From: Escherichia phage vB_EcoM-UFV09
Length of the DNA stretch: 64,000 bases
Sequence record: MZ291552.2
Reading direction: 5' to 3' (one strand)
Under the pieces are notes generated by a model, which was not told the DNA's origin, searched no databases, and worked only from the letters and a program-made list of their open reading frames with translations. The position numbers and the translations under genes were made by a program. Below, piece by piece: positions 53,273 to 60,473 of this stretch (positions are counted from its first letter, which is position 1; each line of letters begins with the position of its first letter).

Positions 53273-54237
53273 TGTATTCTTTAGAGGAATTTAATAATCA
53301 AGCAATAAACGCAGACTTCCAACGTAATAATATGTTCAGCTGTGTTTTTGCTACAACTCCATCAACTAAAAGCTCATCGTTAATAAGCTCAATTAGTAAC
53401 TTTGCTTATAATAACTTGGGTCTAAATTCAGATTGGTTGGGATTAACTCAAGGTGATATTAATCAGGGAATTACCACGCTAATTACTGCTGGCACACAAA
53501 AACTAATAAGAAAATCGGGAGTCAGTAAATATCTTATTGGCGCTATGAGTCAGCGTACTGTTCAGAGTTTATTAGGCTCATTTACAGTTGGTACATATTT
53601 AATTGACTTCTTTAACATGGCATATAACTCATCTGGATTGATGATATACTCTGTAAAAATGCCAGAGAATAGATTATCCTATGAAACTGACTGGAACTAT
53701 AATTCTCCTAATATTCGTATAACTGGAAGAGAATTAGACCCTTTGGTTATTTCATTCAGAATGGATTCAGAAGCTTGTAACTATCGTGCAATGCAAGACT
53801 GGGTTAACGCTGTTCAAGACCCAGTAACTGGATTGCGTGCTTTGCCGCAAGATGTCGAGGCAGATATTCAGGTTAATCTTCATTCTCGCAATGGATTACC
53901 TCATACTGCGGTGATGTTCACTGGATGCATTCCAATATCAGTGAGCGCTCCTGAGTTATCATATGATGGAGATAACCAAATAACTACATTTGACGTTACT
54001 TTTGCGTATAGAGTGATGCAGGCTGGAGCAGTTGATAGACAAGCTGCCCTTGAATGGCTTGAATCTGCTACTATAAATGGTATTCAAAGCGTTCTCGGAA
54101 ATAGTGGAGGTGTTACTGGACTATCTAATTCGCTTTCACGACTTAGTAGATTAGGGGGAACTGCAGGAAGCATTTCAAATATTAATACTATGACAGGAAT
54201 TGTCAATTCGCAAAGTAAAATATTAGGAGCAATATAA
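53272..54237 (+). CDS. 54: gp54 baseplate tail tube initiator
   Basis: 321 aa; overlaps gene 48 stop. Confidence 0.95.
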   Translation: MYSLEEFNNQAINADFQRNNMFSCVFATTPSTKSSSLISSISNFAYNNLGLNSDWLGLTQGDINQGITTLITAGTQKLIRKSGVSKYLIGAMSQRTVQSLLGSFTVGTYLIDFFNMAYNSSGLMIYSVKMPENRLSYETDWNYNSPNIRITGRELDPLVISFRMDSEACNYRAMQDWVNAVQDPVTGLRALPQDVEADIQVNLHSRNGLPHTAVMFTGCIPISVSAPELSYDGDNQITTFDVTFAYRVMQAGAVDRQAALEWLESATINGIQSVLGNSGGVTGLSNSLSRLSRLGGTAGSISNINTMTGIVNSQSKILGAI

Positions 54238-54240
54238 CAA

Positions 54241-54265
54241 TGGGGACCGAAAGGTCCCCATATTT
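54241..54265. terminator. Bidirectional terminator between gene 54 and the alt region
   Basis: Hairpin GGGGACC-GAAA-GGTCCCC flanked by A/T runs. Confidence 0.55.
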
Positions 54266-54556
54266 TTATTTACGGAATGAAATAAAAGCAGCAACTGAAG
54301 CAACAGAGGTTTCTTCAATATAAACCTCAATTTTTACCGGAGCTTCTGACTCAAATTTACCTGTTACTACACCTTGGAAAATACTTTCAGTCTGTTCTGG
54401 CTTTGAAAAATTTTCAGAAGGAAAAATTCCAAACTTTTTATCGGTTCCGAAAATTTTAATAAATTCATCATAAACTGCTTCATTGAAAGCGTTATCAGCG
54501 GGAATAACGCCTTCAACGACGAGTTCTTGACCTAAAAAGCGCAAAGAAGATTTCAT
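54266..54556 (-). CDS. Hypothetical protein downstream of alt
   Basis: 96-aa ORF with an early-type promoter upstream (54588-54617). Confidence 0.6.
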   Translation of the reverse strand: MKSSLRFLGQELVVEGVIPADNAFNEAVYDEFIKIFGTDKKFGIFPSENFSKPEQTESIFQGVVTGKFESEAPVKIEVYIEETSVASVAAFISFRK

Positions 54557-54587
54557 TTTGTGTTCCTCATGTTATGTCAGTAAGATT

Positions 54588-54617
54588 ATTATAACACAAC
54601 ACGAGGGACTTGTAAAC
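54588..54617 (-). promoter_or_regulatory. T4 early-type promoter
   Basis: Minus strand: GTTTACA -35, 17-bp spacer, TATAAT -10. Confidence 0.5.
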
Positions 54618-56674
54618 TACATTTTGAACTTTTTAGACATTCCGTTGATGTTAACCAAAGAAGCTAAGATTTGAGAAACTTCGTTTTCCTCTTCTTTTGA
54701 TTCTTCTACAAGGAATTGATTAAATCCAGCCATTGGACGAACTTCACCAGTTTCCATCAGATGGTCGCCATCATATACTGATTCTTCTAATTGTTCAGAA
54801 GGAGGAACGATTGTACCTTCGATTAGATACTTGTTATAAGCAGTTTCTTTCATCATGTACGTACTTACTTTATTAATCTTCAGTAAAATTCCACGCGGCA
54901 AAATAACTTCAGCTTCGGATGGAAATCCTGATAAATGACCTGGAACGATAACTTTAACTCGTTCAGCTCCTTTAATTACCATACCTACATTAGTTTCAGC
55001 GTCTTCATTCGCATATGTAGAATGACTACCCATATGCATTAAATCTTCAGCATCAACTGAACCTTCTCCTTCACCAGAAAATACTGCTCCGGAATCATCT
55101 AAGGCCATATAATTTTTACCATATTCACCGAAGATATTTGGCTTGAGTGAAGTAGATACAAAGTTCTTGAAATAGAACATTTTATTTTCTATATTATGAC
55201 GTAAAGTTTTAAAGGTAACTTCTTGCCCACGATAAAGAGTAGTTCCTGGAGGAAGAACTGAACCTTTAGAAAATGCAGAATCCAGCGTCTCAATATGTTT
55301 AATAGCTCGTTCCATATATTCTTCACGGGTAGAATCAGGTTTACCTAGAAGGAACGAGTTCATTTCAACATATGAATCTGCGCAATAATCTTCAATTACA
55401 TCAGACTCAGCCTGAGTTAATCCTTTTGGAGTTACTTCAGTGCTTGCATATTCATATGCCTGAGCAGCAGATTCATCAATTAATTTATAAATTCCATTCA
55501 TTACAAATTGAATAATAGCTGTCTTTTCATCTGGTGTAGCTTTAGAACCTTTAACTAAATCATTGACAATTTTCTTAATAACATCAAAGCTATTAGAAAT
55601 ATTAATGTCAGCAAGATCGCTTAAAATTTTATCAGTTTTATAATCAAAGAATTCTTTATTCTTTAAATATTCTTGAGAACCTTGATATGTTATATCGCTC
55701 TGCAGCTTGATAGATGGATCGCGTAAACGTGCATGGGCCAATGCAATATGATTTCGGAAGCTTTCGAGTTCATAATCACTAGATTTAAAACGAGAAGCAC
55801 TTCTCATACCACCGATAGCTCCTTTGCTAAAGTTTGAACCAACCTGAATAACGCCAGAGTTCATTGGTCCTTCTGCTTTATATACCGGAACTTTAGATTC
55901 AAACTCTTGATATTTCTTAGCAGCGAAGCTATCACCCTGAAGTGAAGCATCAACAGTAGAATATTGAGCTTGTGCTGCTAATCGACGACTAATTTTAGTT
56001 TTCTGAATAACAGCTTGATCCGTGCGCTTATCATTTTCTAAAGCAATAGAAGCAGCAACAGCAACAGCTTTAGGAACAGCATTACCTGTTTTAACGTCTA
56101 CATAAACATCACCAACCTTTGATTCAACTTTTGTGAATAACTCGGTTGAAATAGGAGGTACACCTGGAATGTCTTCTAAATTGGCATTTTTACGGTAAAC
56201 CATAATATATGCGTACTTTTTATCATAATCCCAGATTTCCTTTAAAAGAACATATCGACCTGCTCCTTTAGTACGTACTAAACGGTCAGCAATAACTTGC
56301 ATTTGCCGAGCAGCGCCATTTGTTTTACTTTTTAGTACGCGGAATAAGCATGCATCAATTTTATACTGTTTCATTGTTTGAAGAGCAGTATCAAAAACAG
56401 CATTAATGACGCCAATTGGATTTCCACCCAAGTTTTTAAGCTTAACTAATGATAGTTTCTCATTAACGCCTATCATTACGATATGCATCATTTTGTCGCC
56501 TGGCTTAACGTTTTTATTCGTATCACCGCCAGAGGTGTATGTACAAAATCTAAATCCAGGAAGCACGCTTTCTTCACCTGCTTGAATAGCAAAAATTTGA
56601 GGTATTTTATGCTTAGGATTTAAGTTAACAACCGGCGCCGAAGCGCCGTCAAATAATTCTGTAATAAGTTCCAT
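54617..56674 (-). CDS. alt: Alt-like ADP-ribosyltransferase, copy A (head-packaged)
   Basis: 685 aa; N-terminus MELITELFDG; R-S-E signature of ADP-ribosyltransferases (TLYRGQ, FVSTSLKP, SEAEVILPRG). Confidence 0.85.
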   Translation of the reverse strand: MELITELFDGASAPVVNLNPKHKIPQIFAIQAGEESVLPGFRFCTYTSGGDTNKNVKPGDKMMHIVMIGVNEKLSLVKLKNLGGNPIGVINAVFDTALQTMKQYKIDACLFRVLKSKTNGAARQMQVIADRLVRTKGAGRYVLLKEIWDYDKKYAYIMVYRKNANLEDIPGVPPISTELFTKVESKVGDVYVDVKTGNAVPKAVAVAASIALENDKRTDQAVIQKTKISRRLAAQAQYSTVDASLQGDSFAAKKYQEFESKVPVYKAEGPMNSGVIQVGSNFSKGAIGGMRSASRFKSSDYELESFRNHIALAHARLRDPSIKLQSDITYQGSQEYLKNKEFFDYKTDKILSDLADINISNSFDVIKKIVNDLVKGSKATPDEKTAIIQFVMNGIYKLIDESAAQAYEYASTEVTPKGLTQAESDVIEDYCADSYVEMNSFLLGKPDSTREEYMERAIKHIETLDSAFSKGSVLPPGTTLYRGQEVTFKTLRHNIENKMFYFKNFVSTSLKPNIFGEYGKNYMALDDSGAVFSGEGEGSVDAEDLMHMGSHSTYANEDAETNVGMVIKGAERVKVIVPGHLSGFPSEAEVILPRGILLKINKVSTYMMKETAYNKYLIEGTIVPPSEQLEESVYDGDHLMETGEVRPMAGFNQFLVEESKEEENEVSQILASLVNINGMSKKFKM

Positions 56675-56677
56675 GAT

Positions 56678-58771
56678 TTATCCTTGAACGAACTTGTAAG
56701 GCATGTTTGTAATATCTATGCAAGACGCAATAATTCCAAGAGATGATTCTACTTTCTGTTTAATATTTGATGAAACAAATGATGCAAAGTCAACTCTGTC
56801 TTCTATTTCAATATCACCTGTCATTGCAACCAATTCACCAGTTTCCATTAAATGGTCTCCATCATAGATTACCGATTCGGTGAGCTCTTCCGTGGTCATA
56901 ACTTCAGCTTGAATGAGTTTTGTATTATTAGATGTTGTTCCGTCATTATTAGAAGCATCGATTATTTTATTAACTTTGACCATCAATCCACGCGGTAGAA
57001 TAACTTCAGCTTCTGTTGCTATTCCGAGACTTCCTGGATATACAACATTAACTTTATGAGCTCCATCAATTGCCCATCCTATTTGAACTTTAACATATTC
57101 AGGATTTTCTTTATACGCTCTTATTTCGTTTGGATTAATAGTTATTCCTTCTTCATTTTTATCAACTGTTAATTCATTGCGAGCTTCTGGTTCTAAAAGA
57201 CCAATACCAGCATGTGTGATTCCAAAACGTCCAAAAATGATAGGAGTTAAAGAAGTAGATACAAAATTTCTGAAGTAGAACACTTTATTTTTAACTAACG
57301 CTTCATATATAGGAGCAGTCATACTTTGAGCACGATAAACTGTAATGCCTTCTGGTATACGGTCACCATTTTCAAAAGCTGAATCTAAGTTATTTATAGC
57401 AGATTCAATTTCTTTTTCACTCATTACATCGTATCGTTCTGGATTGTAACGACCTAAAAGAAGATTATTGATGTCAGTATATCCTGAACCGCAATATTCT
57501 CTAATGCCACGCTTTTGTGATGGAGTATATTTAGAACCATCGCGGGCAATAGTAATATCAATCATTGGACCAGCACCAATTCCAGAAAAACTGTAAATCA
57601 TTCGTTTGAGGAATTTAGTTTTTGCTGCGTTCCAGGAATTTTTAGTTATTTCTTCCCAGACTTCATCTGGTTGTCCTTTACGATTTTTATTATGATTAGC
57701 AAGCCATTTATCTTTATAATCTTCAAAGAATTGATTTACAGCTGCTGCGTATTTCTCTAAACATTTTATTGAAGTAGTTGGTTCATTTTTAATTGCATTA
57801 AAAATTACTTCTTTAATTTTTTCTGAAACTTCACCGACTTGACTCATTGGAAAGAATTTATAATCATAGTGAAGTTCATCTGCCGTTCCTTCAGCAATAA
57901 TTTTTGCTGCCTTTGTTTTAGAAGCTAATGAATTAATTCCAATTTTCATTTCTTCTGCTTCGGGAATTAAAGGTGCAGTAGCTGGTTTATTAAAATTAGC
58001 TGCTGTAGATTCATACTTCTGGAATAATTCACTTTCAAATCTAGAAGATTCCAATGACTGACTTTGTGCAATTGCTCTACGGGAAATTTTAACTTTAACG
58101 ATTACAGCTTGGTCAGAACGTTTATCATTTTCTTGCGCAATAGATGCTGCAATTGCTTCATTTTTAGTTACTTGAGCTCCAGTATCTTTATTGATATAAA
58201 CATCACCGACCTTCGATTCAACTTTAGTAAAGAGTTCAGTGCTAATTTCTGGAACTCCTGGAATGTCTTCTAATGATACATTTTTGCGATGTATAAGAAT
58301 ATATGCATACTTTTTATCGTAATCCCAGAGTTCCTTAAGAAGGACGTATCTGCCACCTGAACGACTACGGATAAGTCTATCAGCAATAACTTGAATTTGT
58401 CGAGCTTGGCCAGCAGTTTTAGACTTAAGAATACGAAGCATGCAGGCATCAATTTTATATTGACGCATCGTTTGCATTGCAACAGTAAAAACTGAATTGA
58501 TATAATTAATTGGGCTTGGACCAAGACCTTTTAATTTAGCAATTGAGCCTTTAGCAGTTAATGTAAAAGGAACAATATGCATCATTTTATCGCCCATCTT
58601 TAAATCGCGATTAGTATCACCTCCAGATGTATAGGTACATAAACGAAAGCCTGGTTGTTCAATTGCATCATCAACATGAACTGAAAAAATTTGTGGTATT
58701 TTCTTCTTTGGATTTAAGTTTGTAATCGGAAGAGTAGTATCTTCGTCAAATAATTCTGTAATAAGTTCCAT
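56678..58771 (-). CDS. alt: Alt-like ADP-ribosyltransferase, copy B (head-packaged)
   Basis: 697 aa; N-terminus MELITELFDE; same signature (TVYRAQ, FVSTSLTP, TEAEVILPRG); diverged middle region. Confidence 0.85.
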   Translation of the reverse strand: MELITELFDEDTTLPITNLNPKKKIPQIFSVHVDDAIEQPGFRLCTYTSGGDTNRDLKMGDKMMHIVPFTLTAKGSIAKLKGLGPSPINYINSVFTVAMQTMRQYKIDACMLRILKSKTAGQARQIQVIADRLIRSRSGGRYVLLKELWDYDKKYAYILIHRKNVSLEDIPGVPEISTELFTKVESKVGDVYINKDTGAQVTKNEAIAASIAQENDKRSDQAVIVKVKISRRAIAQSQSLESSRFESELFQKYESTAANFNKPATAPLIPEAEEMKIGINSLASKTKAAKIIAEGTADELHYDYKFFPMSQVGEVSEKIKEVIFNAIKNEPTTSIKCLEKYAAAVNQFFEDYKDKWLANHNKNRKGQPDEVWEEITKNSWNAAKTKFLKRMIYSFSGIGAGPMIDITIARDGSKYTPSQKRGIREYCGSGYTDINNLLLGRYNPERYDVMSEKEIESAINNLDSAFENGDRIPEGITVYRAQSMTAPIYEALVKNKVFYFRNFVSTSLTPIIFGRFGITHAGIGLLEPEARNELTVDKNEEGITINPNEIRAYKENPEYVKVQIGWAIDGAHKVNVVYPGSLGIATEAEVILPRGLMVKVNKIIDASNNDGTTSNNTKLIQAEVMTTEELTESVIYDGDHLMETGELVAMTGDIEIEDRVDFASFVSSNIKQKVESSLGIIASCIDITNMPYKFVQG

Positions 58772-58827
58772 GTTATCCTCTCTAGTGTTTATTCTATTTA
58801 TAAAATTAAAGGCCCGAAGGCCTTTAA

Positions 58828-59013
58828 TTAATAGAGAGCTAAAAGAGTACGATATACTTCAAACTTTGGACCTTTTTCATATGGATCAAATCTTTCCGTG
58901 AATTCATCATATGCTAGTTTATCTGGGAATTCAAGAATAACCTGCGATACCGCAGTGGAAACATCTCCACCTTCTTTTTGAGCCACGACAATTGTTTCTA
59001 AGTAAGCTTTCAT
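58828..59013 (-). CDS. Hypothetical small protein between ligase and alt
   Basis: 61-aa ORF overlapping the ligase stop; terminator-like hairpin AAAGGCC-CGAA-GGCCTTT at 58809-58826. Confidence 0.5.
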   Translation of the reverse strand: MKAYLETIVVAQKEGGDVSTAVSQVILEFPDKLAYDEFTERFDPYEKGPKFEVYRTLLALY

Positions 59014-60473
59014 AAACCAGTTACCTCATGAAAATCGCCAAATACATCTTCGAACGTATTAGCTTTAGTTTTATCTTCACGTAAACGAATTGCAATTGGA
59101 AGAAATAGCTTAACGTAATCAGTACGTCCATCTAATTTTACCCAGCCGTTGCATTCGCACTCTAGAATTTTTCCAATATAATAATTTTGGTTTTCCATAA
59201 TGCGAGTACGATCAAGTTCATGCGATTTTATACCGGCTTTATCTTTTAAGCCTGAACCAGCATTTACTTTAATTTTTCCACACTCTGATTCAAGAATGAA
59301 ACCACCTGCTTTAGTAGGGTCTTTACGGTGAGGATAAATTCCTACAATTTTTAAATCAACATCAATTACTTCTTTAAATTTATAAAGATTTTTTGAACGA
59401 GCATTTTCCCATAATCCATCGATATTTTTGAGAATAATACCTTCAAGACCTTGGTCAATATACTTTTTATAAATTACCTTAGCTTCATCTAGGTTATTTA
59501 CTATCTGGTTTTCAATTAAAATTACTTTATCATAGCCTGATGTCATTTGTTCTAGTTTAGAAAAACGTACATCATATTTTAAACGAAATGCTGGAAGACC
59601 ATATATTTCTACTAATGGAACATAGTCCCAGACCTGAAACTTCATGCATTGTGCTTCTTTTTCCGAAATGGTTCCCTTTAAAGATTTATTAGCGATTCCA
59701 TTAGAAGTAGTACGTGATTCAGCTACTTCGGCGAATTCTTTAGCTTTACTAATTTCAGGATAAGCATCAAAAAGAAAATCTAGGCCTTCTGGCTCCTTTT
59801 TAACCTGCTCATGGTATACCAATTCGCCATCAATTAACACACCTTCTGGATGAATCTGGCGAGCTTCTGCAGTCATTTTGATTAACTCTTCTTTAAGAAG
59901 ATCTAATCCTAGATATTCATTGCCAGCTCGTGATAAAAGACGAACATCATCTAATTCATCACCTCTGACTTCAGCAAAACAGCGAGCTCCATCAGCTTTT
60001 AGCTGTGCAAAGGCTGGAAATTTGATATTCTTATTAATGCCTTTTTCGTCATAAGAACTTGCTAGCATTTGAGGTTGTTCAGGAATTAAACCTGGCCAAA
60101 CTTTGTTTGCAATAGATACTGATGCACCGCATTCAAGGTCTCGCATCATCACCCGACGCAAAACTTCAACATCATCTTTTTTACCATCGGTGATATATCC
60201 GATTAATTCCTCAATTGCCGCATTTCCAGTCAATTTCCGAGTAGCTAACGTGAATTCAATGAAGTCAAGCATATCGGTAAGAGTCAACATTCCAAAACTC
60301 TGGGTAGTAATACCCGGTTTAGGCCATTTCTTGATATAATACTGTAACCCACGAGAATAAGTCAGACGATATACTCGTTTAAGCAATTCATTATCTTTAT
60401 TCTTTTCAAGAATTGCTTGCTTCTGCTTAGTTGAACCAATAGATGCTATTTCGTTCAGAATTTTAAGAATCAT
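59010..60473 (-). CDS. 30: DNA ligase (ATP-dependent)
   Basis: 487 aa starting MILKILNEIASIGSTKQKQAILEKNKDNELLKRVYRLTY; adenylation site KADGAR. Confidence 0.97.
   Translation of the reverse strand: MILKILNEIASIGSTKQKQAILEKNKDNELLKRVYRLTYSRGLQYYIKKWPKPGITTQSFGMLTLTDMLDFIEFTLATRKLTGNAAIEELIGYITDGKKDDVEVLRRVMMRDLECGASVSIANKVWPGLIPEQPQMLASSYDEKGINKNIKFPAFAQLKADGARCFAEVRGDELDDVRLLSRAGNEYLGLDLLKEELIKMTAEARQIHPEGVLIDGELVYHEQVKKEPEGLDFLFDAYPEISKAKEFAEVAESRTTSNGIANKSLKGTISEKEAQCMKFQVWDYVPLVEIYGLPAFRLKYDVRFSKLEQMTSGYDKVILIENQIVNNLDEAKVIYKKYIDQGLEGIILKNIDGLWENARSKNLYKFKEVIDVDLKIVGIYPHRKDPTKAGGFILESECGKIKVNAGSGLKDKAGIKSHELDRTRIMENQNYYIGKILECECNGWVKLDGRTDYVKLFLPIAIRLREDKTKANTFEDVFGDFHEVTGL

Follow-up and report, generated by a model that had tools for sequence, protein, structure and literature searches.

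Phage T4 supplies the closest described system, the ADP-ribosyltransferase (ART) Alt. About 40 copies of gpAlt occupy the T4 scaffolding core, where the prohead protease gp21 takes off a small N-terminal peptide (PMC9958956). The enzyme then passes into the host together with the DNA. The targets of T4 Alt include RNA polymerase alpha, at R265, EF-Tu and MazF, and by itself Alt acts on 27 or more proteins of the host (PMC8120803). Next to alt, T4 carries two short genes, alt.-1 and alt.-2, explained in the T4 record by an old duplication that took in the initial part of alt. These genes, together with ORF187c of phage 44RR, were counted among the paralogous duplications of alt by Nolan et al. 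2006 (PMC1524935), and in the literature on 'alt.-1 / alt.-2' we found nothing beyond that paper. A 2026 study of the Tequatrovirus phages 6phi13 and SHFML-11 reported a pair of Alt-like paralogues with 43.29% identity and speculated on an expanded set of targets (PMC13600099). Here we describe the alt locus of Escherichia phage vB_EcoM-UFV09 (MZ291552.2), in which two full-length alt genes stand in tandem. All coordinates are those of the window, the whole stretch of 64,000 nucleotides that was analysed, and the pair is known here from its genes and from sequence comparison.

We show that the tandem pair is the majority state of its genus and that the evidence points to T4 having lost the second gene by deletion. 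We further propose that the two genes probably encode head-packaged, injected arginine ARTs that are made late in infection and have different or partly overlapping target sets.

Results

Two paralogous alt genes in tandem

The upstream alt gene (56678-58771, minus strand) encodes 697 amino acids and is the positional orthologue of T4 alt. The downstream alt gene (54617-56674, minus strand) encodes 685 amino acids and is named 'alt.-2' in the records of RB14, RB51 and T6. Only 3 nucleotides lie between the upstream stop and the downstream start. The original prediction, made from the DNA alone, had described adjacent alt-like reading frames of 685 and 697 amino acids that share a series of conserved blocks. 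We confirmed both frames at these positions and found every one of the blocks: MELITELFD, KIPQIF, YTSGGDTN, KYAYI, LEDIPGVP, ISTELFTKVESKVGDVY, YR, STS and EAEVILPRG. Aligned with each other, the two proteins are 42% identical over 719 columns (BLASTP, E = 1e-164). This similarity is well beyond chance, and the upstream and downstream alt genes are a true tandem paralogous pair.

Family assignment gave a consistent picture. Pfam PF03496 (ADPrib_exo_Tox; gathering score 23.4) matched the downstream protein with 73.5 bits and the upstream protein with 126.9 bits. PHROG 802, 'Alt-like RNA polymerase ADP-ribosyltransferase', spans residues 1-685 of the downstream copy (E = 4.5e-257) and 1-696 of the upstream copy (E = 2.4e-272), and the BLASTP alignment with T4 Alt likewise extends over the entire length of each. 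Both are collinear with T4 Alt in their N domain, middle, ART domain and C tail, but the downstream middle has no detectable similarity to that of T4 Alt. The locus also occupies the same position as in T4 and UFV-AREG1, beside the baseplate genes 54, 48 and 29 and the DNA ligase gene, with the baseplate genes on the opposite strand.

Other searches returned little. No NCBIfam family was matched by either Alt protein. A sequence search of the PDB gave zero matches for the downstream copy and only weak matches to ART toxins for the upstream copy, and there was no Alt sequence among PDB chains at E 0.01 or better. A second Pfam family, PF26846.1, is listed for nearly all full-length Alt homologues in a precomputed column covering proteins P0001-P0120; our local Pfam-A scan did not report it for the window proteins. 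Presumably it models the N-terminal or middle part of Alt.

The pair is the majority state of Tequatrovirus

The interval 54200-59100 is 100% identical to the corresponding DNA of Escherichia phages vB_EcoM-UFV10 and UFV11, both Tequatrovirus, and a query made of the two genes was covered to at least 80% in 356 of 543 matching phage records. We typed the locus more finely with four separate nucleotide queries, counting records with at least 80% coverage. The segment unique to the downstream gene (54617-56320) was present in 401 records, each at 90% nucleotide identity or higher, T6, RB14, RB51 and RB68 among them. The contiguous T4-type junction was found in 91. Queries with the upstream effector part recovered 335 records for the window type and 175 for the T4 type.

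In many of these GenBank and RefSeq records, two genes are already labelled 'Alt-like RNA polymerase ADP-ribosyltransferase'. With 401 records against 91, existing annotations, and papers from 2006 and 2026, the tandem alt pair is the majority state of Tequatrovirus and is already known. The suggestion that a second copy is an unusual arrangement therefore does not survive: the gene has been annotated, was flagged in 2006 and was described in 2026. Its annotation is inconsistent across the genus, being 'hypothetical' in T6 (MH550421) and in several other records, for example those of phiD1, the UFV phages and bov9_1.

Evidence for a deletion in T4

In T4 the genes run in the order 54, alt.-3, alt.-2, alt.-1, alt, alt.1, 30. 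T4 Alt.-1 (61 amino acids, NP_049810) is 95% identical to residues 1-56 of the window downstream protein, and T4 Alt.-2 (67 amino acids, NP_049809) is 98% identical to residues 62-116 of it. Identity of the two to T4 Alt or to the window upstream protein is only 56-62%. Because Alt.-1 and Alt.-2 are nearer to the downstream protein than to T4 Alt, they are the remnant of the second gene and not a partial copy of T4 alt.

The comparison also revealed how the gene was broken. T4 DNA is without 1,699 base pairs that are present in the window, and the gap falls exactly between two 9-base-pair direct repeats, CTAAAAAGT, on the minus strand. Within the downstream gene, the first copy (56327-56335) starts at nucleotide 340 and the second (54628-54636) at nucleotide 2039; they form the left and the right breakpoint, respectively, of what T4 has deleted. 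Both repeats, 1,699 nucleotides apart, occur in 8 of the 11 intact downstream genes that we examined. Because the reading frame is not preserved across the T4 junction, Alt.-2 has an odd C terminus, and the split between alt.-1 and alt.-2 in T4 is a -1 frameshift within an A5 run.

The T6 record words the same difference as an 'apparent insertion in alt.-2'. We rejected an insertion in favour of a deletion in T4, since the 9-base-pair repeats flank exactly the missing 1,699 base pairs. The out-of-frame junction, the extra frameshift in T4 and the intact pair in Dhakavirus speak against an insertion too, and purifying selection on the downstream gene, described below, likewise argues for a deletion in T4 and not for an insertion elsewhere. 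The evidence points to decay of the second copy in the T4 lineage by deletion, with T4 the exception at the alt locus. The statement that T4 has a single alt is thus right in that only one intact alt is present, but a second copy exists there as a wreck, and T4 is no one-copy ancestor.

Conserved catalytic site, divergent middle

Each protein consists of four parts, all encoded on the minus strand. In the upstream gene these are the N domain (58058-58771), the middle (57536-58057), the ART domain (56885-57535) and the C tail (56681-56884). In the downstream gene they are the N domain (55961-56674), a helical middle (55430-55960), the ART domain (54809-55429) and a disordered C tail (54620-54808). 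An AlphaFold2 (AF2) model of the downstream protein, with a predicted local distance difference test (pLDDT) score of 75, folds residues 12-215 into an alpha/beta N domain and residues 250-415 into an all-helical middle; these are followed by the ART domain (421-622) and the disordered tail (629-685), in which pLDDT drops below 50. Searched with Foldseek, the downstream ART domain matched the Vis, C3, CDTa, VIP2 and iota toxins (E = 3e-7 to 1e-4). For the N domain, of about 230 residues, no known fold relative was found.

The original prediction had recognized the R-S-E signature of ARTs in both reading frames, and this held up on careful alignment. Upstream, on the minus strand, the motifs are VYRAQ (amino acids 478-482), FVSTSL (503-508) and GIATEAEVILPRG (583-595), which contain the catalytic residues R480, S-T-S 505-507 and E-A-E 587-589. 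Downstream, also on the minus strand, they are LYRGQ (amino acids 480-484; 55223-55237), FVSTSL (505-510; 55145-55162) and GFPSEAEVILPRG (583-595; 54890-54928), with R482, S507-T508-S509 and E587-A-E589. Neither copy has lost a catalytic residue: R482, S507, S509, E587 and E589 are invariant in an alignment of 14 diverse homologues. The YR arginine and the E-x-E of the upstream copy align with the catalytic arginine and E-x-E of CDTa and iota Ia.

Conservation between the paralogues is uneven. Their N modules (238 residues) are 56-75% identical and their ART domains about 35-38% overall, hypervariable insert included. Their middle domains are 7-24% identical (alignment columns 241-440), which bears out the expectation that the two proteins differ substantially in the middle. 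Profile-profile comparison of the middle domains found no similarity (hhalign probability 0.9%), with profiles so shallow (Neff ~2) that very remote homology may have escaped detection. The residue three before E-x-E also differs: the downstream copy has F there, the upstream copy I and T4 Alt P. In the C3 and iota toxins this position is the turn-1 aromatic of the ADP-ribosylating turn-turn (ARTT) loop and contacts the substrate.

One further motif, YDGDHLMETGE, marks the C tail of both copies (downstream 54743-54775, upstream 56834-56866, both minus strand). All 14 aligned sequences keep Y634, D635, G636, D637, E641, G643 and E644, within an otherwise divergent tail. The motif includes L-M-E, an L-x-E tripeptide of the type cut by the T4 prohead protease, and judging from its sequence the motif may serve for a second round of processing, or as a signal for ejection or packaging. 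At the other end, both copies begin with MELITE, which contains I-x-E, the type of site cut by the gp21 prohead protease.

An old duplication under purifying selection

A tandem alt pair in the same order and the same context is found in the Dhakavirus phage IME341. Its upstream protein is 66% identical to the window upstream protein over the full length and 77% identical over the effector part (residue 240 to the end). The downstream proteins are 48% and 51% identical by the same measures, and the cross-comparisons yield 32-33% and 34-36%. This positional orthology means that the tandem duplication of alt is old and predates the split between Tequatrovirus and Dhakavirus.

We calculated pairwise ratios of non-synonymous to synonymous substitution (dN/dS) against the window at ten loci. 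The downstream gene gave 0.03-0.08, at dS up to 0.26 and with orthologues 98-99% identical; the upstream gene gave 0.02-0.06 within its own allele class. Both copies are under strong purifying selection and are kept functional. These values bear directly on the idea that the downstream open reading frame is a decaying or non-functional duplicate, an idea to which the broken gene in T4 and about 90 other records lends some colour. With 685 intact codons, all catalytic residues present and conservation in 401 records, together with dN/dS of 0.03-0.08, we rejected this explanation. The low ratios and the intact catalytic residues effectively refute it, and we would be very surprised to see it revived.

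The same data can be set against a simpler account of two functional copies, namely that they are redundant dosage duplicates. Both would then do the job of T4 Alt, modifying RNA polymerase alpha and its other targets, and the two genes would raise the packaged amount or give robustness. The copies do have the same catalytic residues, a common N module and one operon; T4 Alt is already broad, with its 27 or more targets, and phages with a single effector of either kind exist. The paralogues have nevertheless long been separate: each has its orthologue by position in another genus, with effector cross-identity of 34-36%. Their middle domains are unalignable, strong purifying selection acts on each copy's own sequence, and duplicates of this sort are generally expected to be homogenised or lost. 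We therefore consider dosage an unlikely explanation for the pair, and prefer two injected enzymes whose targets differ at least in part.

A constant N module with exchangeable effector cassettes

Comparing the window upstream protein with T4 Alt revealed a patchwork. Overall identity is 70.6%, but it is distributed very unequally. The N module has a single substitution (97-100% in each block of 40 columns) and identity in the C tail reaches 88-95%, against 16-35% in the middle and about 60% in the ART domain (36-74% across the ART region).

Yersinia phage PST (NC_027404; L006 3001-5061) has a single alt gene, of which residues 1 to about 102 are of the upstream type and the remainder of the downstream type. 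The PST gene resembles a recombinant of the tandem copies, with a crossover in the conserved TM(K/R)QYKIDAC region. The metagenomic proteins P0003, P0004, P0005 and P0007 are chimeras of the same kind with differing crossover points. From the constant N module and the chimeras together, we conclude that the N module acts as a recombination substrate and that the effector parts are reassorted. At least three effector cassettes circulate in Tequatrovirus, in 335, 175 and 401 records. The downstream cassette, with 97-100% amino-acid identity across about 400 records, is both the most widespread and the most conserved of the three. Shigella phage sb3 (PQ666541) and phage MX01 (KU878969) point to at least one further variant at the upstream position, with about 78-83% nucleotide identity to both the window-type and the T4-type cassettes. 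With this variant, the Tequatrovirus cassettes probably number more than three.

Our tentative interpretation, for and against which we find the case almost balanced, is that alt is a polymorphic injected-effector locus. A constant head-delivery domain of about 238 residues would be joined by recombination to swappable middle and ART cassettes, and the downstream cassette would have its own host target.

The chimeras are also informative about whether the downstream protein is packaged at all. It could instead stay in the producing cell and act there late, like a late counterpart of ModA and ModB, and packaging has been shown only for T4 gpAlt. The entire N module, including the MELITE start, is however conserved between the copies. 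Moreover, chimeras that join an upstream N terminus to a downstream effector (PST, P0003, P0004, P0005 and P0007) persist, which suggests that the N modules are interchangeable. An unpackaged downstream protein thus seems improbable to us, and we retain the view that both proteins travel in the head.

A further possibility specifies what the downstream effector might do. It could mainly be an injected counter-defence protein that inactivates a host anti-phage protein by ADP-ribosylation and does not reprogram transcription; this would be a special case of different targets and is compatible with the reading we prefer. T4 Alt itself ADP-ribosylates and blocks MazF (PMC8120803). The internal proteins of T-even phages, a varied set of injected proteins directed against host defences, have nothing but a packaging signal in common (PMC3012670), and the alt locus follows the same pattern, with a constant N module, three exchangeable cassettes and chimeras with several crossovers. 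Loss of the gene in T4, which has a long history of laboratory propagation, would fit as well. Yet of the three cassettes the downstream one varies least, which is atypical for a gene in an arms race, downstream Alt is not known to counter any defence system, and we found no experiment on the matter. We hold counter-defence as the main role to be a minority prospect, if a better one than dosage.

Probable late expression and a proposed route to the host

Promoters at the locus were called as consensus matches only. A T4-type late promoter box, TATAAATA, lies at 58795-58802 on the minus strand, 24 nucleotides before the upstream alt ATG, and a GAGAGGA Shine-Dalgarno sequence stands between the two. 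The downstream gene has its own AGGA ribosome-binding site, and the 3-nucleotide intergenic gap contains no late-promoter box. With one TATAAATA promoter, a 3-nucleotide gap and a separate AGGA, both genes are most likely made together, late in infection, and we infer a single late transcript for the two.

An exact internal TATAAATA at 57391-57398 (minus strand), within the upstream reading frame, was not counted as a promoter, as about one chance match is expected and the stretch is AT-rich. It sits about 720 nucleotides before the downstream gene and, if used, would give downstream alt a separate late transcript.

Co-transcription, packaging, injection and different targets would then connect as follows. 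The single late promoter would have both Alt proteins made together late in infection. The shared N module of about 238 residues, with its MELITE start, would place them in the prohead scaffolding core, where T4 gpAlt is known to lie. Both would be trimmed by gp21, retained in the head and carried into the next host with the DNA. There, C3/VIP2-type ART domains with intact R, S-T-S and E-x-E would carry out arginine-specific mono-ADP-ribosylation. In the first minutes of infection, the two enzymes would act on different or partly overlapping sets of host proteins. That the targets differ is suggested because the middle domain, the variable insert and the ARTT-loop residue before E-x-E all differ. 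On these sequence grounds, the distinct or additional host target that the original prediction proposed for the second copy is a reasonable expectation.

Several points weigh on the other side. In the literature that we searched, no virion proteomics of two-copy Tequatrovirus phages turned up, nor did we find direct evidence that the downstream protein is packaged, injected or enzymatically active. T4 and 90 other records with the deletion junction lack an intact downstream copy, so the gene is dispensable on at least some hosts. Given the breadth of T4 Alt, the two target sets could overlap heavily despite the divergence of the sequences. Finally, the upstream cassette differs from that of the T4 Alt that has been studied, so a function in modifying RNA polymerase is transferred to either copy by homology alone.

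Features flanking the pair

Upstream of the pair lies alt.1 (58828-59013, minus strand), whose 61-amino-acid product is covered from end to end by Pfam PF24647, 'Phage_blade' (E = 6.8e-28). The alt.1 start codon lies across the end of the DNA ligase gene. Between alt.1 and the alt late promoter we read a terminator-like hairpin from the sequence (58808-58825, minus strand), AAAGGCC-TTCG-GGCCTTT followed by AATTTT. In vB_EcoM_OE5505, a terminator is annotated at the equivalent position.

At the other end, an early-type sigma-70 promoter-like site (54588-54616, minus strand) directly follows the downstream stop. It consists of TTTACA, 17 nucleotides and TATAAT, with a TG, and has 11 of 12 matches. 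This candidate promoter would serve alt.-3 and so mark the end of the alt late unit. The alt.-3 gene (54266-54556, minus strand) is a neighbour outside the pair; its 96-amino-acid product belongs to Pfam DUF5498 and is 97% identical to T4 Alt.-3. In T4, mutants with a C-terminal extension of Alt.-3 escape the CmdTAC defence by blocking degradation of CmdA (PMC11618068). A bidirectional terminator hairpin (54240-54261) separates alt.-3 from gene 54.

Discussion

The existence of a second alt gene is nothing new. What our analysis adds is modest: in which direction and by what mechanism T4 came to differ by a deletion, the cassette-like nature of the locus and the atypical position of T4. If alt is indeed a polymorphic effector locus, textbook 'Alt biology' describes an atypical member of the genus, one that lost the downstream cassette and whose upstream gene carries a minority cassette. 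The only Alt that has been studied biochemically is one with a minority effector cassette. T4 alt.-1 and alt.-2 are what is left of a gene that is conserved and under selection and that most relatives, T6 included, have kept.

Nature also offers the genotypes needed to tell the two effectors apart. Both effectors are present in T6, RB51 and UFV09. Phages with one effector occur naturally too: those of the T4 type have retained the upstream effector alone, and PST has only the downstream effector, mounted on an upstream-type N terminus. The targets of each injected ADP-ribosyltransferase are thereby directly testable with existing phages.

The C3, VIP2, iota Ia, CDTa and Vis toxins have the ART fold and the YR and ExE motifs in common with Alt. 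Identity to the C3-type toxins is 15-20%, however, and these have neither the N-terminal nor the middle domain of the phage proteins, reach their targets by secretion or through a binding component where Alt comes from the phage head, and lack the extra variable insert that Alt has between S-T-S and E-x-E. We did not place the pair among the C3-like or binary toxins: the match is confined to the ART domain, nothing in those toxins corresponds to the N-terminal 415 residues, and the context is a phage late operon. Nor did we class the proteins as MuF-fused or polyvalent effectors, since a Pfam scan found neither a MuF domain nor a second effector domain in either of them. Iyer et al. likewise put Alt outside the genuine polyvalent proteins (PMC5512222).

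T4 ModA and ModB are, like Alt, phage ARTs of the R-S-E clade that modify host transcription and translation proteins (PMC5512222, PMC8120803). They are set apart by the descriptions in reviews, according to which their synthesis follows infection and they do not enter the cell from the head (PMC5512222, PMC8120803). The T-even internal proteins IPI, IPII and IPIII, which have a capsid targeting sequence, resemble Alt in another respect, combining a conserved N-terminal packaging element that is cut by gp21 with injected cargo that differs from one related phage to another (PMC3012670, PMC7697877). The shared element is about 10 residues there and a folded domain of about 230 residues in Alt, and the sequences are unrelated.

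T4 Alt (NP_049811, 682 amino acids) occupies the same locus, between alt.1/gene 30 and alt.-3/gene 54, and agrees in the position of the late promoter, the four-part layout and the R, S-T-S and E-x-E residues. It differs in that the window upstream copy carries another effector cassette and that the window downstream copy is 41% identical to it overall, with an unalignable middle. T4 alt.-1/alt.-2 is the same gene as the window downstream alt, broken in T4 and intact in the window. The tandem pairs of T6, RB14, RB51, RB68, wV7, UFV-AREG1 and the Dhakavirus phages IME341 and JS10, and ORF187c of Aeromonas phage 44RR, are the same pair in the same order and context, and between these T-even tandem Alt-like pairs and that of the window we see no essential difference.

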